Below, one piece after another: positions 12,898-49,827 of a stretch of 64,000 nt of DNA. How positions within the stretch are numbered: position 1 is the stretch's first letter; every line of letters begins with the position of its first letter. The position numbers were made by a program, and so were the translations under genes. The notes under the pieces are model-generated. The model was not told the DNA's origin. It saw only the letters and a program-made list of their open reading frames with translations, and ran no database searches. This stretch comes from a virus (taxonomy: Duplodnaviria > Heunggongvirae > Uroviricota > Caudoviricetes), in the IMG/VR virus record IMGVR_UViG_2579778694_000005; one strand, given 5' to 3'.

Positions 12898-14154
12898 CTA
12901 TCTAGATCCACCAAGAATAACACGATTTTTCACCGGATACCTACGATGAACCGGATAACCCAACGCATCCGCACTGTGTTCGATGCCGCCAGTCTTATCC
13001 ATATCGCGTGAGCCTGGCTTGTAGATCACCTTCTCCAGCGAGTCGATGAGGTGTTTGCACTTCGGATCGATGTACAACCGGGTTTCGCCCGAGGCACTCA
13101 TCAACATGCGATTCACTGCGTTAACACGGTCTGCGATCGGCGGGTGCTTCTTCGGATAATCGACTCGAAGGAAACCTTTTTCCTTGAAGATATCGACGTC
13201 CGATTCACCGCGTGCGTGCTGGCGATACGCACCTGCCGGGTCAGGGAAGATAGTGACCTGAGACTTCCAGCGCCAGAAACGACGCTCCAGCTCATCACAC
13301 ACTTCAGCCGTGTTGGATGAGAACAGCACAACCTCGTCCACGGCCCACAGCTCACCATTTGGCTGCGGCTGCAGGATGACCGATGACATAGGGTCGATGT
13401 TGAAGTCCTGACCAACCCAGATCGGCAGTTTCGGATTGAACTGGAGTGGCTTCACATGCACATTGCGGTCGAACGGGTAGTAAACGCGTCCGGACATGTT
13501 TTCGAAGCTGGCCAGGTATTCCTGCGCGAACGATTTAGGGTCCATATCGTTCTTCGCCGCTTCGATTTCCGCGCTCGGTACGAACGGAGAATCGGCCGTA
13601 ACGAACTGCCAGCTCTTCCACTGCCCTTTGCGTTGCAAATCTTTGTTCTGACCGATAGTCCACAGCTTGTGGAACTCGGAGAAGCCTTTTGGCGTACCGA
13701 TGATCAGCGCACCGCCACGGGTAGAGGACAGTGTCGGACGCAGTACCTTGTACCAGGTGTCAGGCTTCATATCCTGAAATTCATCGAGCACCACGAAGTG
13801 CAGTGCCACACCACGAAGCGTATCGGGCTTATCCGCACCTTTCAGCGCGATTTCAGAGCCGTTCTTCAGCACGATGGTCATCGTGGTGTCGTTTTTCTTA
13901 CGAACCCATTTACGAGGCAGAACTTCCTGCAGGTCATCCCACAAGATCTGGCGAGCCATCTGGTAAGTCGGTGCGACGTACCAGACACGTTGCTTTTTCT
14001 CTTTGGCTGCCGCGCGGATGATGGTGGAGATCGACAACCGGGATTTACCCCAGCGTCGACCCGCACACACCACTTTGAAACGATGTGGCGACTGGAAGAC
14101 TTGCATCTGCCCAGAATGCAGCTGTACGAGACTCAGAGACGACGGGATGGCCAT
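12898..14154 (-). CDS. terminase large subunit
   Basis: 418 aa. N-terminal ATPase Walker A (CAGRRWGKS), Walker B (VVLDEF), C-terminal nuclease-like region. Follows the small subunit. Confidence 0.85.
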   Translation of the reverse strand: MAIPSSLSLVQLHSGQMQVFQSPHRFKVVCAGRRWGKSRLSISTIIRAAAKEKKQRVWYVAPTYQMARQILWDDLQEVLPRKWVRKKNDTTMTIVLKNGSEIALKGADKPDTLRGVALHFVVLDEFQDMKPDTWYKVLRPTLSSTRGGALIIGTPKGFSEFHKLWTIGQNKDLQRKGQWKSWQFVTADSPFVPSAEIEAAKNDMDPKSFAQEYLASFENMSGRVYYPFDRNVHVKPLQFNPKLPIWVGQDFNIDPMSSVILQPQPNGELWAVDEVVLFSSNTAEVCDELERRFWRWKSQVTIFPDPAGAYRQHARGESDVDIFKEKGFLRVDYPKKHPPIADRVNAVNRMLMSASGETRLYIDPKCKHLIDSLEKVIYKPGSRDMDKTGGIEHSADALGYPVHRRYPVKNRVILGGSR

Positions 14155-14156
14155 AG

Positions 14157-14798
14157 TTAGACGCTCCCATCACTTTCATCACCAGACGCGTCAGAATCGC
14201 CCTCTGCTTCGCTCAGTGCTTCCTCTTCGAGTGACTCAAGCAGATCGTCATCAATCAGATCCGGCTCATCATCTTCCTTACGCAGCTGCGCCACCTGGGA
14301 AGGCGTAAGTTCGCCAAATACCAGGTTCGGGATTTCGTCTTCTTCGTTCTCAGCGCGATCCATACCGAGCGCTTTCGAGGATATTTCGAAGCACTTAGCG
14401 AGTGTGCCGCTGGCACGCTGGAGACTCTTCAGGTCATCTTCGATGGTTGCGAGTGGCTTGCCGTCCTTCTTGGCTGTGGCCACCTCATGCATCACCATCC
14501 GACCGAGTGCGAATGCCCAATCGTCGTAACGAGTCCGGCGCTCTTCGATTTTCTCTGCACGCGCCTTCGCACGCAGCTCTGCGTCGGATTTGAGCGACTC
14601 GCGCACCATCTTCCCAACGGAGTCCGCGCCTTTCTCTAATCCACGCTTTTTGAAATGTCTGGAGAGCGTTTCACGACGAATGCCGTACTCTTCCTCCAGC
14701 TTGGAGAGTGTGTATTCGCCGGAAGTCCACTTTGCTTCGGCTTCTGCCCACTCAGCTGGCGTCAGGCGAGTTTTGCTCTCGTCTTTTTCTACAGTCAT
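14157..14798 (-). CDS. terminase small subunit
   Basis: 213 aa. N-terminal HTH-like segment (YGIRRETLSRHFKKRG), acidic C-terminal tail. ATGA overlap with TerL. Confidence 0.6.
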   Translation of the reverse strand: MTVEKDESKTRLTPAEWAEAEAKWTSGEYTLSKLEEEYGIRRETLSRHFKKRGLEKGADSVGKMVRESLKSDAELRAKARAEKIEERRTRYDDWAFALGRMVMHEVATAKKDGKPLATIEDDLKSLQRASGTLAKCFEISSKALGMDRAENEEDEIPNLVFGELTPSQVAQLRKEDDEPDLIDDDLLESLEEEALSEAEGDSDASGDESDGSV

Positions 14799-14837
14799 AG
14801 ATCCCTCTAAAACACTCAGAGCGCATCCTTGCGCTCC

Positions 14838-14893
14838 TAAACAACTTGTTTAATTCTGTGCCTAACCAATTTGTTTTCTGGGTGTTTAAAACC
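14838..14893 (-). promoter_or_regulatory. motif-A promoter/operator element upstream of terminase operon
   Basis: AAACAACTTGTTT...CAATTTGTTTTCTGGGTGT is a copy of the conserved TTGTTTTCTTGTTGGTGTAATTATCGC family (see findings). Confidence 0.4.
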
Positions 14894-14993
14894 GGGCTGG
14901 GGAGTATTCAGAACCTGCTTCCGTATATATTTAATAAGTCACTTAGTATTTATATATACGGAAGCAGGCTCTCAAACTGGCTCCCAGACCGAC

Positions 14994-15260
14994 TTACATC
15001 ACCAGTAATTTGGCTCTGGCACGACCTAAAGTGGTCAGTCCCAGCGTGCGACGGTGGTAGCCGGAATCACCGCGCTGGCGGCACATTCCTTTCTCCACCA
15101 GCCCCTTTTTCACCAGTGCGCGGATAGAGAACTGCATACTCTGTTTGGTCGTTTTGTACGGCAGCACTTCAAGCAGCTCGTCCAGATCGAGCAGATACCC
15201 ACGCTCATGGCCTAAATTGATGGTTTTGATGATGTCTTTTTGTTTGTCGGTCAACGTCAT
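14994..15260 (-). CDS. hypothetical small basic protein (possible DNA-binding)
   Basis: 88-aa ORF with lysine/arginine-rich helices. Confidence 0.4.
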   Translation of the reverse strand: MTLTDKQKDIIKTINLGHERGYLLDLDELLEVLPYKTTKQSMQFSIRALVKKGLVEKGMCRQRGDSGYHRRTLGLTTLGRARAKLLVM

Positions 15261-15269
15261 GGCAAATCC

Positions 15270-16169
15270 TTATGCCGGTAATGCAATTTCAAGAGGTTTA
15301 TTCAAAGGCTGTTTGTCGAATGCCAGCAGTGGCAGCGTGTCCGGCAGCTGACGACCAAAGTCCGGGTTTCGGTACACGCCATACAGCGGAGACGTGAAGC
15401 TCAGGTTGTGAATGTCCTTGAGCAGCTTCACGATGCTGGCCTCGTCCACCAGACTGTCGGCAATGTCCTGAATCGTCGTGCCACGATTACGCCCGGCTTT
15501 GGCCAGGGAACTGTTCTTGTGGTAGTCAGCGACCAGATCACGCAGCGCACGACGACGGCGAGACTCGCTCATGGCGAACAGCTCTTTGACGATCGCTTCG
15601 TTGTCGCCAGGGTCGGAACGGAAATGACGCTGGAAGACGCGCAACGCACTCTCATAGCTCTTCGGACGCTCCGGACGGATGAACTGGAACCCTGCTTTCA
15701 TGGCGAACGGGTTGTATTTGCTCATCGACGACTGGATCTCGATGATTGGCCGGTCGTGCATCCTGCTAACCAGGTTAATCATTCGATAGGAGACGCCGAC
15801 GCCGCGGTACTGAGTGTCCACAACGGAACGGCTGATCACCGCAAAGTTGTTGTTCACGTACCGCCCCCAATACTGGTTGGCCACGGTGGTATTGGTGGTT
15901 GGCTTCAGCTTAGGAAACATGCGATGGCGAGGCGCCAGCAGCAGTTTCGGGTAAGCCATAACCACGACGCCCACCAGCCGGTCGTCCAGTTCGCAGCGAT
16001 AATACGTTGGCGCGAACGGCTTACCATCCGTCTTGTAGTGCAGCGACTTCAGCGCGTGCCAGTCTTCAACCGTGCCTTTGGTAACGGTCATACGCTCCAG
16101 AAAGTCCAGATGACGCGGGAACTCTTCCGGGCGGTAGCGTTTGATGATGATGTCTGTCATGTCGATCAC
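15270..16169 (-). CDS. hypothetical protein (299 aa) of ATPase/ParB cluster
   Basis: ORF with 4-bp overlap to the downstream gene. No motif recognised. Confidence 0.5.
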   Translation of the reverse strand: MIDMTDIIIKRYRPEEFPRHLDFLERMTVTKGTVEDWHALKSLHYKTDGKPFAPTYYRCELDDRLVGVVVMAYPKLLLAPRHRMFPKLKPTTNTTVANQYWGRYVNNNFAVISRSVVDTQYRGVGVSYRMINLVSRMHDRPIIEIQSSMSKYNPFAMKAGFQFIRPERPKSYESALRVFQRHFRSDPGDNEAIVKELFAMSESRRRRALRDLVADYHKNSSLAKAGRNRGTTIQDIADSLVDEASIVKLLKDIHNLSFTSPLYGVYRNPDFGRQLPDTLPLLAFDKQPLNKPLEIALPA

Positions 16170-16420
16170 CTGCGCTCGATATTGGCATTGATGAAGTCCA
16201 GGCGAAGCGATTCCATCGCCCCAACCATGACGTATGGACGCCCACCGTTATGCCAGCAATCCAGAACACTGCCGTCGTTGTTGATCATCAGCAGCGCCAG
16301 GCTCTGGCTTTTGCCTTCTCTGGCGTACTGGAGTGCTTCTTCCAGCAGGCGGATGACTTCAACGTTGTTGTTGTCAGCCTCTTTCGATGGCTTCAGCTCT
16401 ACGATCTTCAAATCAGGCAT
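16166..16420 (-). CDS. hypothetical protein (84 aa)
   Basis: Overlapping stop/start with both neighbours, operon-embedded. Confidence 0.45.
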   Translation of the reverse strand: MPDLKIVELKPSKEADNNNVEVIRLLEEALQYAREGKSQSLALLMINNDGSVLDCWHNGGRPYVMVGAMESLRLDFINANIERR

Positions 16421-17051
16421 ATTCCACCTTCACGCGTTCTTTGTAGTGCTTGGTGATCTGCATATCCGGGCGCAGCGCGTTCTTCAGGTCTTCGTGGGTC
16501 GTCGCCACCATTACCGTCGCACCAACCTTACGGGCGGCACGCTGGAGGTTCGACGCCACAACCTGAGCGGTTACACGGTCGAGAACAGCGCCAAATTCGT
16601 CGGCCGCCCAGACTTTCGCGCCGGACTCGATCAGCTTGGCGATCTTGAGACGGTATTTCTGGCCGTCAGACATCTCGGATGGCTTGCGCACAAAGAGATA
16701 GGCGTCATTCAATCCGGCCATAGACAGCAGCCCCAGCGCTTCGCTGGTGGTATTGCCCAGCTGGTCGATGACGTTAACCTCATTGTCGAAGGTAAAGTCA
16801 TCGATGGAGGCTACAGAAAGCCCTTCATCCTTCATCTGGCGTTGCAGCTCGCGCAGCACAACGGATTTACCGGAACCGGATTGGCCGGTGATGTACACCA
16901 CATCGCCCTGCTTCACTTCCAGCTCCAGATTGTCGTAAAGCGTCCACTCTTTTTCGTCCAGGCCAAGACCGAACGATTCGGCAATCTCCAGCGTGCGCGT
17001 GGTTTTGTTCACGCGGGTCTGAAACGATACGTTGATGGTGTATTTGCTCAT
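16413..17051 (-). CDS. small ABC-type ATPase (soluble, no TM partner)
   Basis: Walker A GQSGSGKS, ABC signature-like MSDGQKYRL, Walker B VWAADEF, H-loop-like ATTHE. Confidence 0.7.
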   Translation of the reverse strand: MSKYTINVSFQTRVNKTTRTLEIAESFGLGLDEKEWTLYDNLELEVKQGDVVYITGQSGSGKSVVLRELQRQMKDEGLSVASIDDFTFDNEVNVIDQLGNTTSEALGLLSMAGLNDAYLFVRKPSEMSDGQKYRLKIAKLIESGAKVWAADEFGAVLDRVTAQVVASNLQRAARKVGATVMVATTHEDLKNALRPDMQITKHYKERVKVEYA

Positions 17052-17749
17052 GCAGCCAGCTCCCCAGAAGAAACTTTCTCCGCATACGCCACGAAAGCGT
17101 CTACCCCGCTCTCTCCCGTGATTTCTTCCATGTGGGCAAGCAAATCCCCAACCACAATGGCAGAGCCTGCCGGGAGCGTTTTAAAGCCCAATACGTCGAT
17201 GACGCGGACTTCTTCAGCGGCCACTTCGCGACTGATCTCGGTGTGCTCTTCTTTCTGACGTTCCGTCTCTTCGCCCAGATCGAGCACCAGAGAGCCGGTT
17301 TCCATCTCTTCGGTCATGCTACCGACAAGCACGTTCAGCTCGCGCTCTTCAAAACCGAAGACCTCGACCTCTCCCAGCACCAGGGATTCCAGTTCCTGCT
17401 GCAATTTGATGGCGTCGTAGTCAATACTGGCCAGGCGGTTGTCTTCCAGACGCTTCGCCTTCACTTCTTCTTCGCTCAGATCGTCGCGAACGATGACCGG
17501 CACACGCTCCAGACCAGCCAGAAGAGCCGCCTCGCGACGACCGTGGCCAGTAATGATGACGTCGTGCTTGTCGACCGTGATCGGCTGGTCAAAACCGCGC
17601 TTTTTGATGGCGGCCGCCAGGTCGCGGATCTGCTGTTCGTCATGTTTTTTGGCGTTCATCTCATACGGGATGAGTTCTGCCGGGTTTCGATAGACGATTT
17701 CAAAGTTTTTGGTCATTACATACGCTCCTTGTAGTAGTCGACCAGCCAC
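17048..17749 (-). CDS. ParB/Srx-like nuclease domain protein 1
   Basis: ParB N-terminal box motif ITGHGRREAALLAGLERVPV. Confidence 0.65.
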   Translation of the reverse strand: MAGRLLQGAYVMTKNFEIVYRNPAELIPYEMNAKKHDEQQIRDLAAAIKKRGFDQPITVDKHDVIITGHGRREAALLAGLERVPVIVRDDLSEEEVKAKRLEDNRLASIDYDAIKLQQELESLVLGEVEVFGFEERELNVLVGSMTEEMETGSLVLDLGEETERQKEEHTEISREVAAEEVRVIDVLGFKTLPAGSAIVVGDLLAHMEEITGESGVDAFVAYAEKVSSGELAA

Positions 17750-18414
17750 ACCAGGGCTTCCCCGGCGTTCTCCATTTCGTTACCGGTATTGATTCCCTGC
17801 TCTTTGATGATGGTTTTGATGGTGTCGGCGACGCGATCTGACGCATCAAACGTCACTTTGAAGCGCATCGTCTGGTGTTCAGCGCCGACTCGCTCGGTTT
17901 TATCGCGTTTGTCCTCATCGACCGGCTCGTCATCGCCACGGGAGAGCGCTTCCAGCGCTTCAAGATCGATAACGGACGCTTTGGCGAGTGTTGCCGCCAT
18001 TTCGTCGTCATATGGGGCGATATCGGACAACCGGTAGTCGATTTCAGACTGGATTTCTTCGATTAAGCGCTGCAAAGCGACCTGATCGTCTTCGCCGTAG
18101 CGCTCGTTATCGACGAGGGACATCTGTTTGGCCACCAGGTCGTTAATTTTGCCCACGGAGATGACGGGAACCGTTGAAATGCCCTGCTCCATCGCGGCAC
18201 GCCAGCGGTGTTCGCCACCGAGGATCTCAAAAACGCCCCCGTCCAGCTCCCGCGCCAGAATTGGCTTAAAAAAGCCCAATTTTTTGATAGAGCCTTTCAG
18301 TTTTTCGAAGTTTTGCGCCCCAACGGAGTTGGTATTCCAGGGATTCGGACGCAGGTTCGCGACTTCCACCTGCAGAATCGTAATTTTCACATCCATAATT
18401 CTGATACAATCCAT
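17716..18414 (-). CDS. ParB/Srx-like nuclease domain protein 2
   Basis: ParB box ILGGEHRWRAAMEQGISTVPV. First gene after the divergent promoter region. Confidence 0.65.
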   Translation of the reverse strand: MDCIRIMDVKITILQVEVANLRPNPWNTNSVGAQNFEKLKGSIKKLGFFKPILARELDGGVFEILGGEHRWRAAMEQGISTVPVISVGKINDLVAKQMSLVDNERYGEDDQVALQRLIEEIQSEIDYRLSDIAPYDDEMAATLAKASVIDLEALEALSRGDDEPVDEDKRDKTERVGAEHQTMRFKVTFDASDRVADTIKTIIKEQGINTGNEMENAGEALVWLVDYYKERM

Positions 18415-18478
18415 TGTATAAGTACTTACTTACTATAATAGCCAATTACCATACAAAAGGCACGAAGGAAAGAGGTTT
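18415..18478. promoter_or_regulatory. divergent promoter region with TAAGTACTTACTTAC palindrome and TATAAT (18434-18439)
   Basis: -10 TATAAT followed by RBS AAGGAAAGAGG and the ATG at 18479. Contains the recurrent GTAAGT/ACTTAC palindrome. Confidence 0.5.
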
Positions 18479-20038
18479 ATGACAGTTCGGATTGTATCGA
18501 ATGCAGTCAATGCGCTGATTTCTGGCGCTGATGACAACGTGAAACGGCTCGTTCAGGAGATGTTGAGCTATGAAGTGGAGGCTGGTGACTGGAAAGGAAC
18601 CAGCACGATGTTCAACTGGAGCAAAAACGCATTCCCGGCTGGGTTTGCGAAGCCAGTAGCAGCCAACCTTCTGAAAGCTGGCATAAAATGCGTGCATGTG
18701 CGTAAGGAAAAAGCCCCCGCGCTGGGCAAGCCGAACCCGGTAGTTAACCCATTCCCGTATAACCCGGACTATGCGTATCAGGATCAGACTGTGGAAACAC
18801 TGGTGCGCGAAGGGATGATGATTGCCCAGATTGCGACGGGTGGCGGTAAATCGAACGTAGCGTGTAAGGCAGCTGCTCGCATTGGTCGTATGACGCTGTT
18901 TTTAACCACGCGCTCGGTTCTGATGTTCCAGATGGCAGAGAACTTCCAGAAATCCATCGATTACCGCGCGGAGAATGGCGAGCCGTGGCTGAAAGGCCAG
19001 AAAGTTGGGGTGATTGGATCTGGTGAGTTCCAGGTCTCGCGCCATATCAACGTTGCCACGGTGCAGACCCTGGCCAGTTTTCTCGAAGAGCCACCGCGCG
19101 ACGCATCACCGGAGAAAAAACAGTACCACCTGAAGCGCCGGGAACTGGTTAAGCGCTTTCTGTCCAGCGTTTCTCTGCTGATTCTGGAAGAGGCACACGA
19201 ATCATCTGGTTCAAACTTCTACGATATCGCCCGGTTGTGCATCAATGCCGATTACCGTCTGGCGCTGACAGCTACGCCGTTCATGAAGGACTCGACCGAG
19301 GCAAATATGCGTCTCATGGCCGTTGCCGGCCGCATTGAGATAAAGGTAACGGAGAAATATTTGATCGATCGAGGTATTTTAGCGAAACCATACTTTCTAT
19401 ATCATAAAATCGCGTACACTCCAGACGAGGTGCGGATTAGGGCTGAACTTGCTTCGAAACACCTGAACTTTCGGGTTGGAATGAGTACGGCTTACCAGAA
19501 AGCCTATCAGTTAGGCATCGTTTACAATCTGGGCCGCAACGAGGCTATTGTGCGCGAAGCGTTAATGTACAAAAGTCACGGTCTGAACTGTATGACGCTG
19601 GTTCGTTTGAAGCGTCATGGTCAGATTTTGATGGAAATGATGAAGGAAAGCGGCCTGAAGGTCGATTTCATCTACGGAGAATCAAACCAGACTACCCGAC
19701 AAGCAAAGCTCAACAGTCTGGCGGCAGGCAAGATAGATGTTCTGATTGGTTCAACCATTCTGGATGTTGGTGTCGACGTTCCAAGCGTAGGGGCGGTGAT
19801 TCTGGGTGGTGGCGGCAAAGCCGAAGTTGAGATGCGCCAACGTGTTGGTCGCGGTCTTCGAGCCAAAAAGAATCAGGCTAACGTGTGCTTTATTACCGAC
19901 TTTATCGACGTGAGCAACAAATATCTCATGTCGCATTCATATGAGCGGAAGCACATTATCGACACGACGCCTGGGTTTGCCGAGGGCGTTTTGCCGGTGG
20001 GTAGCACATTCGATTTCACTGTTTTGAATAGAGAGTAA
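18479..20038 (+). CDS. SF2 (DEAD/DEAH-box type) helicase
   Basis: Walker A TGGGKS, DEAH-like LILEEAHES, motif VI QRVGRGLR. Confidence 0.75.
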   Translation: MTVRIVSNAVNALISGADDNVKRLVQEMLSYEVEAGDWKGTSTMFNWSKNAFPAGFAKPVAANLLKAGIKCVHVRKEKAPALGKPNPVVNPFPYNPDYAYQDQTVETLVREGMMIAQIATGGGKSNVACKAAARIGRMTLFLTTRSVLMFQMAENFQKSIDYRAENGEPWLKGQKVGVIGSGEFQVSRHINVATVQTLASFLEEPPRDASPEKKQYHLKRRELVKRFLSSVSLLILEEAHESSGSNFYDIARLCINADYRLALTATPFMKDSTEANMRLMAVAGRIEIKVTEKYLIDRGILAKPYFLYHKIAYTPDEVRIRAELASKHLNFRVGMSTAYQKAYQLGIVYNLGRNEAIVREALMYKSHGLNCMTLVRLKRHGQILMEMMKESGLKVDFIYGESNQTTRQAKLNSLAAGKIDVLIGSTILDVGVDVPSVGAVILGGGGKAEVEMRQRVGRGLRAKKNQANVCFITDFIDVSNKYLMSHSYERKHIIDTTPGFAEGVLPVGSTFDFTVLNRE

Positions 20039-27543: not shown

Positions 27544-27763
27544 TCAAACATCTCCGTTCTTAATCCACTGCCTGATTTCCTCGTCTCGTGCGACTTCTTT
27601 CTCGTGTTGGGTAACATACAGGTCGGGTAAAAGAGGTGGAGCGAATTCTGGCTCTGTCGAACACCACTTTTCATATGCCTCACGCATAGATTTTTCTACA
27701 TCCCAATGTTCCAACTCTTGGTATTCAATCGGCCAGTTATCCTGCAATTTCTTCACAGCTTTA
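27544..27763 (-). pseudogene. C-terminal fragment of a phage gene truncated at the IS boundary
   Basis: The frame is open from the IS end (27764) down to the stop at 27544. Protein-like sequence (...REAYEKWCSTEPEFAPPLLPDLYVTQHEKEVARDEEIRQWIKNGDV). The upstream part of the listed 118-aa ORF is IS sequence. Confidence 0.45.
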
Positions 27764-27781
27764 TGAATCGCCACGGATAAT

Positions 27782-28594
27782 CTAGACACTTCCGAGCCGT
27801 TGATAATACTGGTTTTCATATTCTGTCGGTGACATCTGTTCGCTAGAACCATGCCGACGCTTACTGTTATAAAACATTTCGATGTAATCAAAAATATCAC
27901 TGCGGGCTTCTTCCCGCGTTCCGTAGATCTTTTTCTTTATCCGTTCACGTTTCAACAACTGGAAAAAACTTTCTGCAACCGCATTATCATGGCAGTTACC
28001 GCGACGGCTCATGCTACCCTCCAGGCCGTGTGATTTCAGGAACGACTGCCACTCATGGCTTGTGTACTGACTGCCCTGATCCGAATGAACCAGCACCTGT
28101 TTTTCGGGATTACGCCGCCATACAGCCATCAGCAGTGCGTTCAGGACAATGTCCTTTGTCATCCGGGATTGCATGGACCAGCCGATAATTTTGCGTGAGA
28201 ACAGATCAACAACAACGGCAAGATACAGCCAGCCTTCGTGGGTCCTGATGTAGGTTATGTCCGTTACCCAACGCTCATCAGGAGCATCCGGATTGAACTG
28301 TCGCTGGAGCCTGTTGGGTGACACGATACTGGCCTCGCCTTTACGTGCCCGCGGGCTTCGGTATCCGACCTGAGCCTTTATTCCGACACGTTTCATCAGT
28401 CTCCAGACTCTGTTTACTCCGCACTGTTGCCCGCTGTCACGCAGATCCAGATGGATTTTGCGATAACCATAGACGCATCCCGATTCCAGCCAGAACTGTT
28501 TAATCTGTCCTGTCAGTCTCAGGTCTGCCTGATGGCGTTGTGAATGCGGCTGCTGAAGCCAGGCGTAAAAACCACTGGGATGAACATCCAGCAC
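27782..28594 (-). CDS. IS3-family transposase OrfB (DDE catalytic domain; expressed as OrfAB by -1 frameshift)
   Basis: Motifs DITYIRT, HSDQGSQYTS, CHDNAVAESFF. The frame is open upstream to the slippery site. Confidence 0.8.
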   Translation of the reverse strand: MLDVHPSGFYAWLQQPHSQRHQADLRLTGQIKQFWLESGCVYGYRKIHLDLRDSGQQCGVNRVWRLMKRVGIKAQVGYRSPRARKGEASIVSPNRLQRQFNPDAPDERWVTDITYIRTHEGWLYLAVVVDLFSRKIIGWSMQSRMTKDIVLNALLMAVWRRNPEKQVLVHSDQGSQYTSHEWQSFLKSHGLEGSMSRRGNCHDNAVAESFFQLLKRERIKKKIYGTREEARSDIFDYIEMFYNSKRRHGSSEQMSPTEYENQYYQRLGSV

Positions 28595-28650
28595 CCGACA
28601 GAGCAGGCGAACAGGCCAGCAACAGGAGTTGTCACGGATAAAGGCGTACC

Positions 28651-28935
28651 TCAGTCGGACAGCTTTGCGAAGTACGCCGCGGCTTTTTTTAATATGTCCC
28701 GTTCGTCGGTAACCCGTTTCAGCTCTTTCTGGAGACGGCGGATCTCGGCCTGAGCATCTGACTGTTCTTTATTAGTGGAAGAATCCGGACCGTACTTCTT
28801 TATCCAGGCATAAAGGCTGTGGGTGGTGATATCGAGACGTGTTGCAACGCTGGCAACAGAATAACCGCGATCAACAACCTGTTTGACTGCTTCAGTTTTA
28901 AACTCTTCAGGATAACGCTTACCGCTCATGGGCAC
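28651..28935 (-). CDS. IS3-family transposase OrfA (HTH + leucine zipper)
   Basis: 94 aa ending ...ILKKAAAYFAKLSD. A AAA AAG-type slippery heptamer (TTAAAAAAAGCC, on the minus strand near 28685) for the programmed -1 frameshift. Confidence 0.75.
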   Translation of the reverse strand: MPMSGKRYPEEFKTEAVKQVVDRGYSVASVATRLDITTHSLYAWIKKYGPDSSTNKEQSDAQAEIRRLQKELKRVTDERDILKKAAAYFAKLSD

Positions 28936-39428: not shown

Positions 39429-39902
39429 TTAACGGGGAGAGTGGAAACGTTCGGCGCCCAAACGCTCAATCTCCACGATAGCCATTTTGGACGCCTGGAC
39501 AATCATGTCGCGGCGGTGGGAAAAGGCGACAACAGCGTGCTTGTACAGATCAGCAACGTGCCGGGCATCGTCGAGTTTCTGGCGCTTCGCGAGGTATTGC
39601 GGGTTGGTTCTAACCTTCGCCTCCAGTACGGACTCATTAAACTTAATGCCGTTCATACTCAGGTTCTTACGCTCATTGTCGTAGATTTTCGCCTCAATCG
39701 CATCGAGGGAGAGTTTTGCATCTGCGACTTCGCGTTCTGCCCGCGCCAGCTTAGAGCCGTACTCCATCAACAGGCGCGGTTGCTGACGCCAGACTTCCTC
39801 AAGATTGTCGCGGTCGAACTCCAGATCGGACATGATTTTTTCGTAGATATCTGCACTCATTTTGATAGGTTCCAGATTATTTCTATATATCAATTTTATC
39901 AT
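39429..39902 (-). CDS. hypothetical replication-module protein
   Basis: 157-aa ORF (likely start at MSADIY). Coiled-coil. Confidence 0.4.
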   Translation of the reverse strand: MIKLIYRNNLEPIKMSADIYEKIMSDLEFDRDNLEEVWRQQPRLLMEYGSKLARAEREVADAKLSLDAIEAKIYDNERKNLSMNGIKFNESVLEAKVRTNPQYLAKRQKLDDARHVADLYKHAVVAFSHRRDMIVQASKMAIVEIERLGAERFHSPR

Positions 39903-40061
39903 AATGGAAACAGGCGGTGGAGATTATGACACGATGAAATGGAGGTTATGAGATAGGTAAGCCAGTGAAAAATCAGGTGGTTCTGGTACTCTATGCCCCG
40001 TTAAAAGCTGGCCGTAGACAGCGTACGACAATGTGGTGGGGACACGGACGGAGGGATTTCA

Positions 40062-40108
40062 CTTGCCGTTGACAGTTGTCAACACCGAACATATAATATG
40101 CCGGAGAT
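40062..40108 (+). promoter_or_regulatory. sigma70 promoter with operator palindrome (TTGACA 40069-40074, TATAAT 40092-40097, 17-bp spacer)
   Basis: The perfect inverted repeat GTTGACAGTTGTCAAC (40068-40083) overlaps the -35. Confidence 0.65.
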
Positions 40109-40111
40109 AAA

Positions 40112-40342
40112 TTGTATCTGAAGAAACATACTAATAAGCACATTCAAGCGGCCATTGAATATGCTGTAACTCAGGGCTGGGTTTGGGTTCCACCAGGCGA
40201 TTCTGCACACTGTTTTTGCAAATTGCGCTGCGGCAGTCCAGAAGGTGAGCACCGAGATCACCAGATGAGCGTATGGTCGACACCGAGAAGTGCTGAAAAC
40301 CATGCCAAGCAAATCATTCGTATGGTAGATCGCTGCGATTGA
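40112..40342 (+). CDS. HicA-like small toxin candidate
   Basis: 76 aa, basic, GW...SAH...HQ pattern loosely matching the HicA/YcfA fold. First gene of a 2-gene operon with an HTH partner. Confidence 0.35.
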   Translation: MYLKKHTNKHIQAAIEYAVTQGWVWVPPGDSAHCFCKLRCGSPEGEHRDHQMSVWSTPRSAENHAKQIIRMVDRCD

Positions 40343-40423
40343 TTTTGCCCGGTAAGGAGTTGCGACAACAACTCCTTACCGAATCAATAAGAGAATACTC
40401 TGAATACTAAACGAAGAGGTACT

Positions 40424-40987
40424 ATGGCGCTTTATAACTTCACTCTGACACTCTCAGGCGTAACGTATGAGACCGAAGGACTGGAAGACGCGCTGTACGA
40501 AAGCGGCTGTGACGATGCGCTGATTTGCGCATATGGAAACTCCGTCTATGTTGAGTTCGACCGCGAAGCTGAATCGCTGGATGCCGCTATTGCATCAGCG
40601 GTCGACAATATCGAATCAGCCGGAATCGGCGCTATTGTTGAATCTGTCGACTCTGCCCTTGTAGGCTTGAGCGACATTGCAGAAATAACAGAAATGTCTC
40701 GCCAGGCGATTGCGATGCTGAAAGATGGCACTCGTGGTAGCGGAGACTTCCCTTGCCCTATCCAACGAATCAAAGGCCAATCCCCACTTTGGGATTGGGC
40801 TGATGTAGCCGAATGGCTACTAAAGAACGGTCGATTAAAAGAAGACAGCAACTTGGTAAATAACGCTCGTGTGCTGAGTAAATGGAACCTTGCCTTACGT
40901 GCAAGCGCTTCAAAAGATTTTCAAGAAGTTGAGTCGATCGCGGTAGCTCTTATCGCACGTCGACGTCATCACGCCGAATGCGCATGA
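40424..40987 (+). CDS. HicB-like antitoxin candidate (C-terminal HTH)
   Basis: 187 aa. C-terminal HTH LSDIAEITEMSRQAIAMLKDG. Followed by a strong terminator. Confidence 0.4.
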   Translation: MALYNFTLTLSGVTYETEGLEDALYESGCDDALICAYGNSVYVEFDREAESLDAAIASAVDNIESAGIGAIVESVDSALVGLSDIAEITEMSRQAIAMLKDGTRGSGDFPCPIQRIKGQSPLWDWADVAEWLLKNGRLKEDSNLVNNARVLSKWNLALRASASKDFQEVESIAVALIARRRHHAECA

Positions 40988-45156: not shown

Positions 45157-46392
45157 TTAACCGAAGATCTTCTGAACCACTTCACGCGCTGCCTGTGCAG
45201 ACGTGGATGGAAGTTTATTGATAAACGACTTTTCGATGCCGGCAGAGAAATCACCGCGCATCATTCCGATTTTTGCGGACAGCAGCAGCTCGCGAGGGCC
45301 GATTGGCTGGCTGATCAGATGCTGTTCATAACCTTCACGGACAAGATTCGCGAATTTCACCATCTTCTCGGCGTATTCGCGGATGACGCCAGCCTCAGCC
45401 AGCATGTTGACTTCAGCCTTAGTGCTCATGTACTTCACGTTCGAAACAATGCCGAAGCGCGAGAAGTTCGCCGCGTTCTGGATGTTCGTTCCTTGATAGA
45501 GACCCGTTTCGTCGCCAGAGCCGTTAGTGTTGCCAGTGCCAATGAAGGCAAAGCGTTTATGCGGAGTGATACGGCGCCAGTCCGGAGTTGCCTCTTTGAT
45601 GATCAGCGGTTCTCCTTCAAGAACTGGCTGGTACACACCCAGAATCTGCGGGAACGCGAAGTCATATTCATCAGCGAGGTACACCCAGCCATTTTTCATC
45701 GCCAGCGCCAGCAAACCAGGCTCGAAGTAGGTGGAGCCATCGCGAGCGAGGATCTGGCCTGTAACGTGTGCTTCTTCCATAGACGCCGTATGCTGGGCGC
45801 GGATCAGTGGTCGATTCAGCAGGGCGCATAGCTGCGTAGGAAGAGAAGATTTACCGGTTCCTGCATGACCCCAGAGATAGCCTGGGATTCCGATTTCCAG
45901 CATCATGAAGATGTCTTTAATCAGGTCGAAGTCGCCATACACATAGTTCTTCTTCGCTTCCGGTACGAACTCCGGATATGGCGTGTTGACGTTGACTGTC
46001 ACCTGTAGTGGTTTTCCGCGTGGCGTTCCCAGCTCTTTGATCGTTACGCCAAGCAGCTCGTGCGCGGCCACCAGTTCGGTCTTGTATTCGACCGTTCCTG
46101 CGTAGCCCGGATGTGCGCTAATGTCCGCCACTTTTCCTTCACCTGAATGCTTTTCGGCACGCTTCTCATTGAGTTTGGCCAGTGCCGTGCGAGAGATCGT
46201 TGGTTCATCCGGAAACGCAGTAGTGTACATTTTCACCACCTCGTCCACGTCCAGACCTTTCGCGGACTCAGGAATGTTCTCGCAGCGGCCCATAGAGATA
46301 TGGGATTTCAGGTAATGAAAGGATTTGCCACACCACTTGCAGACGATGGCTTCTGGCAAATGTTCTTCTTGCTGTAGTGCAGTAGCGGTCAT
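45157..46392 (-). CDS. MoxR/CobS-like AAA+ ATPase
   Basis: Walker A GHAGTGKS and Walker B VYLADEYD. N-terminal Cys/His zinc-finger-like segment. Paired with a vWA protein. Confidence 0.65.
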   Translation of the reverse strand: MTATALQQEEHLPEAIVCKWCGKSFHYLKSHISMGRCENIPESAKGLDVDEVVKMYTTAFPDEPTISRTALAKLNEKRAEKHSGEGKVADISAHPGYAGTVEYKTELVAAHELLGVTIKELGTPRGKPLQVTVNVNTPYPEFVPEAKKNYVYGDFDLIKDIFMMLEIGIPGYLWGHAGTGKSSLPTQLCALLNRPLIRAQHTASMEEAHVTGQILARDGSTYFEPGLLALAMKNGWVYLADEYDFAFPQILGVYQPVLEGEPLIIKEATPDWRRITPHKRFAFIGTGNTNGSGDETGLYQGTNIQNAANFSRFGIVSNVKYMSTKAEVNMLAEAGVIREYAEKMVKFANLVREGYEQHLISQPIGPRELLLSAKIGMMRGDFSAGIEKSFINKLPSTSAQAAREVVQKIFG

Positions 46393-46488
46393 GTGTTTTT
46401 CCTTACTGTTTGTCGTTCGTGGGGTATATCTTATATAAATATATTAGGCTGTATAGTAAGTGATTACTTATTTTTACGGGTAAACCAA

Positions 46489-48924
46489 TTACCCAAGAAT
46501 GATACGAGATAGCTCTGTGACGACTGACGGCCCTAACTCTTCTACGCTGTTTACCAGTGCGTAATTTTTGTAGTAACGCCGTGGTGCGTCGGTCAGAACG
46601 CCGATAGCCATCAAATCGATGTCACTCAACGTCTCAATTTCTTTGGTGACGGTTCGCAAATGCTGATGGAACCCATCGCCTGCAGCACATGGCGCCCCGT
46701 CGCTCATAACCAGCATGATCTTCTTGTCCTCCATTCGCCCTGCAAACAGAGTCGCCAGCTGCGCGACGCTCTCACCATCGACGTTATTGAGCAGGGGGAA
46801 CGTCTCACACACGCAGCCCATGCGGGCGCGGATCTCTGGAGAGTTGGCTTTCTCATTCCAGTTTTTGATAATGGGCAGCATTAGCGCCTCGAAACGAGTA
46901 AACCCGCGCTTCGACATGGTTTCATAATCTGGGCTACCAAACGTGGTAAAGCCGGTGATGATGTTAGGCACATTGATACGATCCAGAGCATCCGCAATGG
47001 TGTAGGCGCTGGCGAGTGCCAGTTGAATCTTCCTGCCGCCCATTGAGCCGGACAAGTCGATCACCTGCTGGACGCACGCGTTCACCGCTCTGTGGTCTTC
47101 TTTCTTGCGGAACACGCGGTCGTCGTTCATTGCCAGACGATACAGGTTCGCGCCATGTATCCGTCCACGTCTCTGGCCTGGGATAAACTGGACTCGATTG
47201 CGGCTGGCGATAGCTCGCTCCAGGTCTTTGGCCAGAGTCGAAGAAACGCCTGCTGACAGATGTTTTTCGATTTTCAGTTCAAAGAGCCTTCTGCCTTCCG
47301 GAACCATGCGGTAGCGATCGACCGGTGAGTGCATTGGGATTGCGCCAAACGTCTTTCTGGTGCGCTTTACATGCTCTTCAGCCTCATCAATCAACCCGAT
47401 AAAGTCGTATGAACGATCGTATGGGCGATACTCAGAAAGTGAGGTGCTCATAAGCTCTTTGCTGATGGTGGCCGACAGTGCGTCTTCGGTCATTTCGCCT
47501 GTTCCGTCTTCCATCTCGTCGAGCGCCTTGAGTGCGTCCTCCAGAGTCATTTCATCCGGAGCAGGAACAAAGCCTGACTCACTGTCTTCAGGCGCTTCCG
47601 CGGCATCCTCATTTTCTTTACCTTCGCCGTCTGTGTGATCGGCGGCGTCATCTTCCTCTTCGCCTTCTCCTTCCGACTCCCCGTGACTGGCATCGGAGTC
47701 TTCGCCGTCATCACCATCACTATCGCCAGCGGCGCCAGAGCCATAACCATCGGAGTCATCGGCGTCTTCGCGAATGCCATCACCAGGCGTTGGAGAGCCA
47801 GTGTCATCACTACCACCTTCGTCATCAGAATCACCTGATTCCATGCCGGCATCATCGGATTCTGGGGTGTCTCCTGATTCTTCTTCGCCTGCTTCTGTAT
47901 ATTTACTTTCTGTATCACTAATTTCTTTATCCTCTGTAGGTAAGTCCTTATCTACTGATTCAGGCAAATCAGAATCCCCAGACTCTTCCTCTTCTGAGGC
48001 ATCATCTTCTTGCTCTTCCTTGTCGTCGTCTTCGCCTTTGGTACGCTTTGGTGCTGATTCACTATGAGTCGGTTCGTCACCGGCTTCTGGGGTTTCCTCT
48101 GACTCGTCCTCACTCTTCGACGGCTTCCTAGCAGACGATTTAAGCTCTGGTAATTTGCCCTCTGGCTTGTCTTTCATATCCTGCATGATTTGGGCGATAG
48201 CAGCTGCGACCTTCACGCAGTCTTCTGTGTTCGACATATTGCGAACGGCCACGTCGATACCATGCTCTTTGAGCAAGGCTACAGGCTTATCGATGAGGTG
48301 CCAGTGTTCTTCCATAAAGTCGATGAAAGGGCTTTGGCCATCCCAGGCGCGAACGACCGGGCAAAGGAAGAATTTCAGGAACAATTCACGCTGGTCGCCG
48401 TGGCAGATTGAAACCGCCTCTGACACTTTGCCCTTGAAGTATTTGTCGATCACCAGGTTCTGTGTGGCCAGCAAATTGCGACGAGTTCCGTTGAATACCT
48501 GTCCCATTCTGCGTTCAATAAAAACGTCTTCCAGCGCGTTCCAAAGCCCGGTAGACGGAGCCTTTCCTCTCTCGCGCATCTTCATTGCGACTTTCGGATC
48601 AGTAAAGAGGATATGGGCTACCTCATGGTCGAGAAAACCACGTACTGCGTTCATGAGGGTTGGTGACGCGTCGTCCGGTATAGATGGGATGTTTACCAGC
48701 ACTGGTTCGCCGCGCCGGTTGTAGCGGACATATGCTTCATTGCCTCGCTCTGCAACAGGTATCTGTTTGCCTGATAGCATCGCTACAACTCGTTTTACGC
48801 AGTCGCGAAAGTCCTGTACCTCTTTCAGCACAGATCTGGTCATGGCTTTGGACATGAGAATTTCCTTGTTATTAAAACAATTTGTTTTCTGATGTGCGTA
48901 ATTTATCACTGTACGAACAGGCAA
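46489..48924 (-). CDS. vWA-domain protein (CobT-like) with long acidic low-complexity region
   Basis: C-terminal vWA MIDAS motif DLSGSMGG. ~200-aa D/E/S-rich stretch (coordinates 47550-48100). N-terminal region shows no recognised motif. Confidence 0.6.
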   Translation of the reverse strand: MPVRTVINYAHQKTNCFNNKEILMSKAMTRSVLKEVQDFRDCVKRVVAMLSGKQIPVAERGNEAYVRYNRRGEPVLVNIPSIPDDASPTLMNAVRGFLDHEVAHILFTDPKVAMKMRERGKAPSTGLWNALEDVFIERRMGQVFNGTRRNLLATQNLVIDKYFKGKVSEAVSICHGDQRELFLKFFLCPVVRAWDGQSPFIDFMEEHWHLIDKPVALLKEHGIDVAVRNMSNTEDCVKVAAAIAQIMQDMKDKPEGKLPELKSSARKPSKSEDESEETPEAGDEPTHSESAPKRTKGEDDDKEEQEDDASEEEESGDSDLPESVDKDLPTEDKEISDTESKYTEAGEEESGDTPESDDAGMESGDSDDEGGSDDTGSPTPGDGIREDADDSDGYGSGAAGDSDGDDGEDSDASHGESEGEGEEEDDAADHTDGEGKENEDAAEAPEDSESGFVPAPDEMTLEDALKALDEMEDGTGEMTEDALSATISKELMSTSLSEYRPYDRSYDFIGLIDEAEEHVKRTRKTFGAIPMHSPVDRYRMVPEGRRLFELKIEKHLSAGVSSTLAKDLERAIASRNRVQFIPGQRRGRIHGANLYRLAMNDDRVFRKKEDHRAVNACVQQVIDLSGSMGGRKIQLALASAYTIADALDRINVPNIITGFTTFGSPDYETMSKRGFTRFEALMLPIIKNWNEKANSPEIRARMGCVCETFPLLNNVDGESVAQLATLFAGRMEDKKIMLVMSDGAPCAAGDGFHQHLRTVTKEIETLSDIDLMAIGVLTDAPRRYYKNYALVNSVEELGPSVVTELSRIILG
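48874..48909 (-). promoter_or_regulatory. motif-A element upstream of the AAA+/vWA/polymerase operon
   Basis: AAAACAATTTGTTTTCTGATGTGCGTAATTTATCAC. Confidence 0.4.
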
Positions 48925-48964
48925 CTAAGCTGTTCGTACAGGCATCTATAGGCAGGAATGTGTT

Positions 48965-49177
48965 TTAAATGGTTCTCACGGCAAGGGAGCCGCAACCAGT
49001 ATTGATGAGAGTGAAATGTTTATTTTTTAGCTCAAAAGTGAAAACCGTCGTATCAACCATCTCCACGGGAAGCTCTTCAGATTCTAGTTCTGTCAGGATC
49101 GTCGCGACGCCATCTAGTCCAATCGCATATGCGTGTCCAACCTCAAGGGCGGTCAATTTAGAAGTTATATTTTTCAT
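48965..49177 (-). CDS. hypothetical protein (70 aa)
   Basis: ORF with upstream AT-rich promoter-like region. Confidence 0.35.
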   Translation of the reverse strand: MKNITSKLTALEVGHAYAIGLDGVATILTELESEELPVEMVDTTVFTFELKNKHFTLINTGCGSLAVRTI

Positions 49178-49440
49178 TTCATATCATCCAACTGAACACA
49201 TTTGAAAGTTCGGCAATACTACTACCTATTGTATCAATATGGAATGCACCTATATCAGATACGTCTTACTTTTTTCTGTAAGCGAATAGTGACAAATTGC
49301 CTAAAAACCATAGTATAATGGCGGTATGCCGGGGTTTTGTGCCTATCGAAATTAAATAGATAAGTCTTTACAACCCTGGCCTTTGCTGTAATATCAGTAA
49401 GCACTTACCAGAGATAAACAAAACACGCAAGGTTCACTAC

Positions 49441-49827
49441 ATGGCTACCAACGAAACAGAGATCAAACAAGGTCGCTACGCAGCTTACATTGACTCGTTA
49501 ATCACAATCTCGCCTAAAAGTCAGGCTACCATTGCCAAAGAGGTTGGGTACAAGAACGCCAACAACCTCTCTCTCATCAAAAGCGGCAAAATCCCACTTC
49601 CAGTCGATAAGGTTCGAGCTTTAGCCGAAGCACTGGAGGCAGATCCGGTTCGACTGATGCTGATGGTTCTGGAAGAACGTCATCCTGAGCTGCTTGAGTT
49701 TTTTCGCGAAGAGGGCACTGCACCTCTCTCCGCTGATGAAAAACTCGTTCTAGAAGCGTTCCGTAACCGTTTTGACGGTCAACAGGGTGCGTCAGAAAAG
49801 GTGGTAGAGGCCATCAAGTCACTGTGA
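49441..49827 (+). CDS. HTH DNA-binding protein (XRE-like; regulator or excisionase-like partner of recombinase)
   Basis: HTH QATIAKEVGYKNANNLSLIKSGK. Promoter GTGACA-N19-TATAAT (TATAAT at 49314-49319) upstream. Converges on the recombinase gene. Confidence 0.55.
   Translation: MATNETEIKQGRYAAYIDSLITISPKSQATIAKEVGYKNANNLSLIKSGKIPLPVDKVRALAEALEADPVRLMLMVLEERHPELLEFFREEGTAPLSADEKLVLEAFRNRFDGQQGASEKVVEAIKSL

Follow-up and report, generated by a model that had tools for sequence, protein, structure and literature searches.

A split ParB-ABC-GNAT gene block upstream of the packaging genes in an SSU5/pHCM2-type phage-plasmid

Described systems and the block

TmcA/NAT10 are ATP-dependent RNA cytidine acetyltransferases, which acetylate a nucleic-acid base by means of a GNAT domain with a coupled ATPase. 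In phages, thymine dioxygenases which act post-replicatively on dsDNA depend on ParB-like activators; these consist of an N-terminal NTP-binding and a C-terminal domain and lack a DNA-binding domain, and clusters of such an enzyme and its cognate activator (5mYOX plus ParB-like protein) often co-occur with terminases (PMC13229309). DpdB has been described as a ParB-like ATPase which partners DpdA (PMC12839542). GTP is bound by a ParB-acetyltransferase fusion, and the nucleotide specificity of the ParB fold is unpredictable from sequence or AlphaFold3 (PMC12704722).

Here we analysed five co-directional genes at 15270-18414 of a 64,000-nucleotide stretch of viral DNA (the window). As an earlier note on this DNA had stated, all five are present as ORFs on the minus strand. 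The source element is an SSU5/pHCM2-type phage-plasmid. By analogy to TmcA/NAT10, the block would couple an ATPase to a GNAT domain; base acetylation is the reaction of the former and a proposal for the latter. With the thymine dioxygenase clusters it shares a phage ParB-fold protein without DNA-binding domain alongside an enzyme, there one that acts on dsDNA, yet it has two ParB paralogues, and a predicted GNAT acyltransferase and an ABC ATPase instead of an Fe/2OG dioxygenase. As in DpdA/DpdB and the ParB-methyltransferase fusions, a ParB-like NTPase domain is proposed to serve a DNA-modifying enzyme, whereas the block has neither a transglycosylase nor a methyltransferase domain. Mom from phage Mu, a GNAT-fold protein which modifies DNA adenine, acts without ParB or ABC partners and is not related to the block at the sequence level. 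Archaeal ParB-ABC-GNAT fusions have orthologous ABC and GNAT domains, common motifs and the same order. In contrast, the block is split into genes, and ParB is duplicated and carries extra C-terminal domains.

Genes and protein families of the block

ParB1 is encoded at 17716..18414 (minus strand, 232 aa). ParB2, a paralogue with the same architecture, was first called at 17048-17749 (minus strand, 233 aa); according to ortholog alignments and RefSeq calls this start is over-extended and ATG 17716 gives 222 aa (17048..17716). A soluble ABC ATPase (16413..17051, minus strand, 212 aa) and an 84-aa ORF (16166..16420, minus strand; phrog_796 at 1e-46) follow. The last gene had been listed as a 299-aa unknown (15270-16169, minus strand). 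The gene was confirmed, its length was not: by the same alignments and calls it comprises 296 aa from ATG 16160 (15270..16160, minus strand). Every block gene has a PHROG family match, with E-values between 1e-46 and 1e-166. Judged by sequence comparison, these matches, a protein identity of about 30-50% and a gene order kept at 31/31 loci are far beyond chance. A known defence system was rejected; PADLOC returned weak P-loop or MTase-ParB matches only.

The block had been placed between terminase and a divergent promoter. It does lie upstream of the packaging genes, but not directly beside terminase, because a conserved 88-aa ORF (14994..15260, minus strand; phrog_900 at 5.5e-48) and a TerS-like gene (14157-14798, 213 aa) separate it from TerL. 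The gap before the TerS-like gene contains an inverted repeat with 24-nt arms and an AT-rich centre (14907..14975). The linear records of SSU5 and Cyrano start and finish inside its loop, and distant relatives have long palindromes at the same position. The repeat is a candidate cos or packaging-start site bounding the block. As a side observation, the Nican01 record begins at TerL. At the opposite end, 64 bp (18415..18478) lie between ParB1 and a UvsW-like helicase gene which runs divergently within the window. This intergenic region is the presumed site of the promoter; a consensus scan of 14000-19000 detected no sigma-70-type promoter.

The ParB boxes GHGRREAA and GGEHRWRAA, to which the earlier note had drawn attention, are readable in the translations. 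ParB_N (PF02195) matched both proteins above the cut-off of 26.3 bits, one at 53.5 bits and the other at 35.6 bits. ParB1 (PF02195 at 2.6e-14, phrog_723 at 5e-86) aligns to Spo0J (1vz0), GERR box included. Its N-terminal nucleotide-binding domain is joined by an acidic linker to a small C-terminal domain, which is conserved; PNPWNxN, GGxHR and DNxRYG are invariant in the family. Its AF2 model (mean pLDDT 54.9), calculated from an alignment padded with archaeal fusions, is confident for residues 8-102 only. A homologue search with ParB1 yielded solely near-identical Klebsiella variants. ParB2 (PF02195 at 1e-8, phrog_930 at 3e-115; family invariants NxKxH and GHGR) has an N-domain which is closest to the ParB domain of phage and plasmid ParB-methyltransferase fusions (phrog_498 'DNA methyltransferase', 3.5e-32; PADLOC MTase_II, 2.6e-17). 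That the two are paralogues was borne out by a full-length hhalign comparison of ParB2 with the ParB1 family (probability 99.3%, E 3e-20). The GxxR phosphate-binding box (GGEHR and GHGRR) is conserved across orthologues. By PF02195 and this box, ParB1 and ParB2 are predicted members of the ParB/Srx (ParB-CTPase fold) superfamily.

In both proteins, similarity to ParB profiles is limited to the N-terminal nucleotide-binding part, and the TIGR00180 match ends near position 100 of 186. PF02195 was the sole Pfam match, i.e. an HTH domain was not detected in either protein and the C-terminal domains had no match in Pfam. Direct reading of the sequences showed that the ParA-contact motif [LFI]G[KR]G[LFI] is absent from both. 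An RHH fold of the C-terminal domains was rejected as well (hhalign against approximate sequences of Arc, CopG, Mnt, omega and ParG; probability <=3%).

In the 212-aa protein Walker A (GQSGSGKS), the signature (MSDGQ) and Walker B with the catalytic acidic residue (VWAADE) were read as previously noted, in addition to an H-loop histidine (TTHED), and ABC_tran (PF00005) matched at 4.7e-13. On these motifs it is assigned to the ABC ATPase superfamily. It is orthologous to the ABC domain in ABC-GNAT and ParB-ABC-GNAT fusions: E-values against the archaeal fusions were 1e-37 to 1e-57 (phmmer), compared with 5e-17 for the best curated transporter family and 1e-13 for the best PDB chain, and the family-specific signature SDGQKYR and a VW..DEF.A.LDR motif occur in both. 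An ABC transporter was rejected; all NCBIfam matches were far below the cut-offs (best 62 bits, cut-off 195). The conserved block contains no membrane protein or partner permease.

The 296-aa protein is a GNAT-fold acyltransferase with an intact acyl-CoA motif A (Q/R-x-x-G-x-G/A) and a C-terminal helical extension. It is the predicted catalytic partner of the ABC ATPase. Mom was among its structural matches, but generic GNATs scored structurally equal or better, and neither Pfam nor PHROG produced a Mom match. A PDB sequence search with the GNAT profile gave no match and a first IMG/VR scan with the GNAT alignment retrieved close relatives only. The GNAT fold by itself does not specify the acceptor; a protein, a small molecule and tRNA are all conceivable. 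The first reading of this DNA had missed the GNAT nature of the protein and its unity with the ABC ATPase.

Fusion relatives and distribution

The GNAT protein and the ABC ATPase are the split form of an uncharacterised ABC-GNAT fusion family (COG2401 type). Many viral contigs code for an ABC-GNAT fusion, and in many archaeal viral or proviral regions ParB is part of the same polypeptide. Among 120 homologues of a fused relative, 82 from archaea had at least 580 aa and were single ParB-ABC-GNAT polypeptides of about 630 aa. In all 82, the ParB1 and ParB2 profiles from the phage matched at the N-terminus (E 1e-9 to 1e-15). All 82 likewise matched the ABC protein of the phage, at about 1e-50, as well as the GNAT profile; the GNAT protein matched the fusion GNAT domains at 1e-14 to 1e-34. 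SDGQKYR, HY[KR], RGxG and KYNPF..KAG are common to block and fusions, and the domain order of the archaeal proteins (ParB, ABC, GNAT) is the gene order of the block. By its motifs and matches the block can be assigned to the ABC-GNAT/ParB-ABC-GNAT family, split into separate genes.

The core is also recurrently fused to a TFIIB repeat and, in at least 12 contigs, to a family-B DNA polymerase (1260 aa). Its neighbours in 12 IMG/VR contigs were mostly Rad51/RecA, PolB/PolA, clamp loader, Mre11/Rad50-like, UDG, RNR and primase. At 78/80 IMG/VR loci with the ABC-GNAT core a ParB was not detectable nearby (about 10 kb); thus, ParB is accessory and not obligatory. The archaeal fusions do not adjoin terminase, and in one Bathyarchaeia provirus the fusion gene is located among virion genes, not replication genes. 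A literature search for COG2401 or an ABC-type ATPase fused to an acetyltransferase was negative, although the family is possibly described in the ABC ATPase classification by Krishnan et al. 2020, and a characterised member of the fused family was not found in the literature searched.

The synteny comparison which had been suggested for the block demonstrated an invariant order at 31/31 related loci: a divergent helicase gene, then ParB1, ParB2, ABC, a variable slot, GNAT, small ORF, palindrome, TerS-like gene, TerL and portal. The position of the block is unchanged in lytic-type phages of Pseudomonas (nickie) and Rhizobium (RHEph10), as it is in integrated chromosomal prophages of Dyella, Hyphomonas and Halomonas. 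This shows that it is a fixed component of the SSU5/nickie/RHEph10 siphovirus lineage of about 100-120 kb, whatever the lifestyle. It is carried by 784 PLSDB plasmids and was found in 249 of 5,426 complete E. coli genomes, with all 254 E. coli copies on plasmids. Phage-plasmids of clinical Enterobacteriaceae with this unit are pHCM2 (S. Typhi), pMT1 (Y. pestis) and those of the SSU5 type. A Yersinia pestis contig of about 108 kb has an identical copy of the GNAT gene. Because of the covalent fusions, the identity of domain order and gene order and the invariant order at 31/31 loci, ParB1, ParB2, the ABC ATPase and the GNAT-fold protein can be regarded as one predicted functional unit, a split four-gene ParB-ABC-GNAT machine. 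The covalent fusions define a conserved, uncharacterised enzyme machine of bacterial and archaeal viruses, which extends recent evidence for a ParB fold serving DNA-modifying enzymes.

Candidate functions

Among the functions contemplated in the earlier note, a DNA-modification or anti-restriction module fits the evidence best. We infer, with a confidence just short of even, that the core is an NTP-driven acyltransferase working on viral DNA. This is based on the fusion partners (ParB, family-B polymerase, TFIIB repeat) and on the replication and recombination neighbours; in the window, the UvsW-like helicase gene divergent from the block is a further link to DNA. The outcome could be a modification of DNA or an acetylation of DNA-bound proteins. 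The two ParB-fold paralogues would be nucleotide-gated adaptors or activators which bring the enzyme to double-stranded DNA or open the DNA. A dimer of the ABC ATPase would provide ATP-dependent clamping or base access, and the GNAT domain would move an acyl group from acyl-CoA onto a base of the phage genome. Acylated bases would then shield the DNA of the progeny against nucleases of the host. A protein bound to phage DNA is a less likely acceptor of the acyl group. In ParB1 and ParB2, the small C-terminal domains, missing in the fused archaeal proteins, may dock on the ABC/GNAT dimer and so replace the covalent link. The literature searched contained no report of a modified base in the SSU5/nickie/RHEph10 lineage. 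More doubtful is the general proposition that ParB-ABC-GNAT is a hitherto unrecognised viral DNA-modification machine, NTP-gated and dsDNA-loading, which N-acylates bases of the replicated or packaged genome and is common to bacterial and archaeal viruses.

Alternatively, ParB and ABC proteins might load the enzyme on DNA such that the GNAT domain acetylates proteins bound there, possible targets being nucleoid proteins of the host, defence nucleases and proteins of the phage itself. Phage DNA would thereby be cleared or protected in replication and packaging, or the host be taken over. We consider it unlikely: the neighbourhood is without a conserved candidate substrate, the ParB-dependent precedent is a base-modifying enzyme (PMC13229309), and Mom demonstrates that a GNAT fold is able to act on DNA. 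TerS-like gene, TerL and portal always are immediately downstream of the block, the SSU5 and Cyrano records end inside the long palindrome at this junction, and the ParB/Srx fold includes nucleases (PHROG names). Thus a packaging accessory was considered, in which the ParB-like proteins would recognise or nick cos/pac beside TerS and ABC and GNAT proteins would assist terminase. However, in IMG/VR the core is surrounded by genes for replication and recombination, and a ParB is usually not detectable within about 10 kb. The archaeal fusions are away from terminase, a packaging role is not known for any GNAT enzyme, and TerL already includes a nuclease region (a faint Terminase_6C match in a relative). 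The packaging-associated nuclease set of the earlier note is conceivable, but it is weaker than DNA modification and on the whole quite improbable. KorB-like silencing, i.e. ParB clamps which regulate the late/packaging operon with the enzymes as unrelated passengers, is very unlikely. The block is indeed at a divergent promoter beside the immunity/regulator region, and ParB-fold regulators exist, DndB being described as one (PMC10853773); yet the covalent fusions argue for joint enzymatic action, and a DNA-binding domain was detected neither in ParB1 nor in ParB2.

The proposal of a non-canonical partition system did not find support. Two ParB-fold proteins adjoin an ATPase, in databases and papers the genes go by the names parB or partition protein, and every one of the 254 E. 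coli copies is plasmid-borne. As in type I ParABS, ParB-fold proteins with a GxxR box are present on a low-copy plasmid prophage; they would bind a centromere, e.g. the repeats at 26-27 kb, and the ABC ATPase would replace ParA. Against this, the ATPase adjoining the parB genes is of the ABC type and not a ParA with KGGxGK[ST], and gene fusion ties it to a GNAT enzyme. The ParB proteins have neither a centromere-binding HTH (or RHH) domain nor the ParA-contact motif. Furthermore, presence is not tied to an extrachromosomal lifestyle, with lytic-type phages and integrated prophages carrying the same block. The claim that a canonical parA is missing holds for the window, which is devoid of KGGxGK[ST], but not for this type of element. 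SSU5-type elements possess a ParA-family ATPase with a deviant Walker A (KGGPGKS) and a small partner about 70 kb from the block, found in 11/11 enterobacterial SSU5-like phage records, whereas ParA matches are essentially absent from the Rhizobium, Pseudomonas nickie-like and Stenotrophomonas relatives. With a separate ParA in SSU5-type elements, and none detected in their non-plasmid relatives, the partition reading lacks support. The block probably is not a plasmid-partition system, and a centromere-binding role with the ABC ATPase in place of ParA is the least credible of the readings. This matters as the labels parB and partition protein are in routine use for the block, and parB is a marker for SSU5-type phage-plasmids. 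If these are not partition genes, accounts of the maintenance of SSU5-type elements need revision, and parB-based typing actually tracks a phage-core module. For the function of the block, SSU5 and Cyrano are a tractable E. coli/Salmonella system.

Two small ORFs accompany the conserved core. The 88-aa ORF may encode a winged-helix protein (weak LexA_DNA_bind match, 0.09); a homologue is at the same position in 25/31 loci. The 84-aa ORF lies outside the core and occupies a variable insertion slot, which the first reading had also missed. It is confined to the closest loci, absent in Cyrano, and swapped for other ORFs in a Klebsiella phage and in Ectothiorhodospira.

Organization of the gene block

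The five co-directional, tightly packed ORFs which the earlier note had placed at 15270-18414 were all found, on the minus strand. In transcription order these are ParB1 (17716-18414, 232 aa), ParB2 (17048-17716, 222 aa, or 233 aa from an upstream GTG), an ABC ATPase (16413-17051, 212 aa), an 84-aa ORF (16166-16420) and a GNAT-fold protein (15270-16160, 296 aa; 299 aa if started from GTG). A UvsW-like helicase gene diverges from ParB1 at a distance of 64 bp. Downstream of the GNAT gene, an 88-aa ORF (14994-15260, minus strand) is followed by a gap of 195 bp, a TerS-like 'DNA binding domain' gene (213 aa; annotated as small terminase subunit in the related phage Cyrano), TerL and portal, all on the minus strand. 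Above the curated cut-off, Pfam returned ABC_tran and, twice, ParB_N, which bears out the assignment of an ABC ATPase and two tandem ParB-domain proteins; each ORF matched a PHROG family (1e-46 to 1e-166). Between the ABC and GNAT genes, the site of the 84-aa ORF (16166-16420) is a variable insertion point. It is empty in Cyrano, is filled by an ORF of 183 aa in a Klebsiella phage, and carries Phage_gp49_66 and RyR-domain ORFs in an Ectothiorhodospira prophage. Alpha-proteobacterial relatives have a second gap, between ParB2 and ABC.

The unknown protein of 299 aa in the earlier note is an enzyme with a GNAT fold. In an alignment of 33 sequences, about 40 residues were invariant, among them those of the R-G-x-G acyl-CoA motif; the C-terminal ~125 residues form a helical extension. 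ParB1 and ParB2 are paralogous along their full length (hhalign probability 99.3%). In each, a nucleotide-binding domain bearing a conserved GxxR box forms the N-terminus, and an acidic linker connects it to a small, conserved domain at the C-terminus. Their matches to ParB profiles end after the first ~100 positions, and they carry neither an HTH domain nor a ParA-contact motif; nonetheless, the literature and NCBI names call them parB or partition proteins.

The ABC-GNAT core and its fusions

An exhaustive profile search with the GNAT alignment yielded 860 relatives, of which the remote ones (E 1e-27 to 1e-14) have 450-560 aa, with an N-terminal ABC and a C-terminal GNAT domain, and are named in some phage records 'ABC-type ATPase fused to a predicted acetyltransferase domain'. 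A search started with one such fusion gave 709 homologues. Among the 120 matches listed, 38 were shorter fusions of ABC and GNAT alone and 82 had a length of at least 580 aa. The N-termini of all 82 long forms matched the phage ParB1 and ParB2 profiles (E 1e-9 to 1e-15); the GNAT profile and, with a single-sequence E of ~1e-50, the phage ABC protein were likewise matched by all 82. Where a source is named for the long forms, it is Bathyarchaeia, Thermoproteota or Nitrososphaerota. Their domains follow one another as ParB, ABC, GNAT, just as the genes do in the block, and the unusual ABC signature SDGQKYR is common to the phage ABC protein and the fusions. Curated transporter families (best 5e-17, below cut-off) and PDB chains (best 1e-13) are far more distant from the phage protein than these fusions are. 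What the block encodes is a ParB-ABC-GNAT machine, common to bacterial and archaeal viruses, in split form. The archaeal fusions lack the small C-terminal domain of ParB1/ParB2, which may dock the two ParBs onto the ABC/GNAT dimer. One ABC domain of the family carries an intein.

The archaeal fusion genes lie within integrated elements or proviruses together with phage integrase, TerL, portal, capsid and giant beta-helix proteins, in one case adjacent to an N6/N4 DNA methyltransferase. The ABC-GNAT core is further encoded on 97 IMG/VR viral contigs. Of 80 kept loci, 78 had no match to the phage ParB profiles within the fetched stretch (up to 10 kb on each side). The 150 neighbour proteins from 12 of these contigs were mainly Rad51/RecA, PolB/PolA, clamp loader, Mre11/Rad50-like proteins, UDG, RNR, DnaB and primase. 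Other recurrent fusions join the core to a family-B DNA polymerase (1260 aa, at least 12 contigs) or a TFIIB repeat (665 aa, six members). From these fusions, the proviral context, the IMG/VR neighbours and the lack of a detected ParB at most IMG/VR loci we conclude that the ABC-GNAT core is a virus-borne enzyme tied to DNA transactions, which often, but not always, has ParB as its adaptor.

The polymerase fusions are encoded by single ORFs of 1260-1310 aa, and IMG/VR viral contigs are among those that carry them. In the archaeal metagenome contigs examined, two small overlapping ORFs (~130 aa and 155-186 aa), both without a Pfam match, always precede the ParB-ABC-GNAT gene, and giant NosD/beta-helix proteins and a phage-type integrase are often near.

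Partition or a proposed DNA-directed acyl transfer

The earlier note had considered a partition system. The gene order of the block was examined in related loci. All 31 have a divergent helicase gene, then ParB1, ParB2, ABC, a variable slot of 0-0.9 kb, GNAT, (small ORF), gap, TerS-like, TerL and portal. They include Pseudomonas phage nickie and Rhizobium phage RHEph10, and for Nickievirus isolates a predicted lytic lifestyle and no observed temperate behaviour have been reported. They also take in prophages within Dyella and Halomonas chromosomes and a Hyphomonas prophage with flanking chromosomal genes. A separate ParA exists elsewhere: outside the window, the otherwise identical Enterobacter plasmid NZ_CP114986.1 encodes at 39812-40836 a 221-aa ParA-family protein (GGTKGGPGKST) followed by a 117-aa partner without Pfam match. 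This pair is a candidate for the canonical partition locus of this element type. The ParA was present in 11 of 11 enterobacterial SSU5-like phage records (identity 83-95%), in SSU5 about 70 kb from the block; the organism counts of the ParA search contained no Rhizobium or Stenotrophomonas record, and the only Pseudomonas match listed was an unrelated 39.6-kb phage. Retention of the block in lytic-type phages and integrated prophages, the separate ParA, and ParBs devoid of HTH and ParA-contact motif argue against partition, and this reading is not supported.

Of the readings which the earlier note proposed, DNA modification is, as a hypothesis, the one that fits the evidence best. Among experimentally grounded systems, the closest analogy is offered by phage thymine dioxygenases that depend on a ParB-like protein: they act on double-stranded DNA only with this partner, which has an NTP-binding and a C-terminal domain but lacks a DNA-binding domain (PMC13229309). 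DpdB was described as a ParB-like ATPase serving DpdA (PMC12839542), and in a survey of the ParB-CTPase fold a ParB-acetyltransferase fusion was reported to bind GTP (PMC12704722).

Mom is a GNAT fold able to modify DNA. By analogy with Mom and the ParB-dependent systems, the block may carry out an NTP-driven, DNA-directed acyl transfer. Most likely, bases of the phage genome would receive the acyl group and thereby be protected; alternatively, DNA-bound proteins might be acylated in their place.

The adjacent palindrome and the host element

Between the 88-aa ORF and the TerS-like gene, the gap contains an inverted repeat (14907-14975) whose 24-nt arms flank an AT-rich centre of 21 nt. The linear GenBank records of SSU5 and Cyrano begin and end within its loop. 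In Klebsiella, Dyella, Ectothiorhodospira, Hyphomonas and RHEph10 relatives, too, a long palindrome occupies this position. The repeat is a candidate for cos or the packaging start, in which case the block would sit at an end of the virion DNA. At 20 nt upstream of the TerS-like start codon is a GC-rich hairpin with TGTTTTA after it (14837-14818, minus strand), which is conserved in a Klebsiella phage. It may terminate the transcript of the ParB-ABC-GNAT operon or form a leader structure ahead of the packaging genes.

The stretch matches Enterobacter hormaechei IncFIB plasmids at 100% identity and Salmonella phage SSU5 at 98.4%, and the element belongs to the SSU5/pHCM2-type phage-plasmids. 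The stretch occurred in 784 PLSDB plasmids, Klebsiella, Escherichia, Yersinia and Salmonella included, and in 249 of 5,426 complete E. coli genomes, every copy being plasmid-borne.

By annotation of the identical plasmid, 45922-49616 is a nucleotide-metabolism cluster with a 346-aa 'thymidylate synthase', DHFR, a MazG-like pyrophosphohydrolase and a small kinase-like ATPase. At 346 aa the first exceeds the typical ThyA length; if this ThyA homologue were a hydroxymethylase, it would bear on DNA hypermodification. At 27544-28734, adjoining a repeat region noted earlier, the window diverges from NZ_CP114986.1: the 396-aa ORF which the plasmid has there is interrupted in the window by 16 stop codons, and shorter ORFs are found instead.
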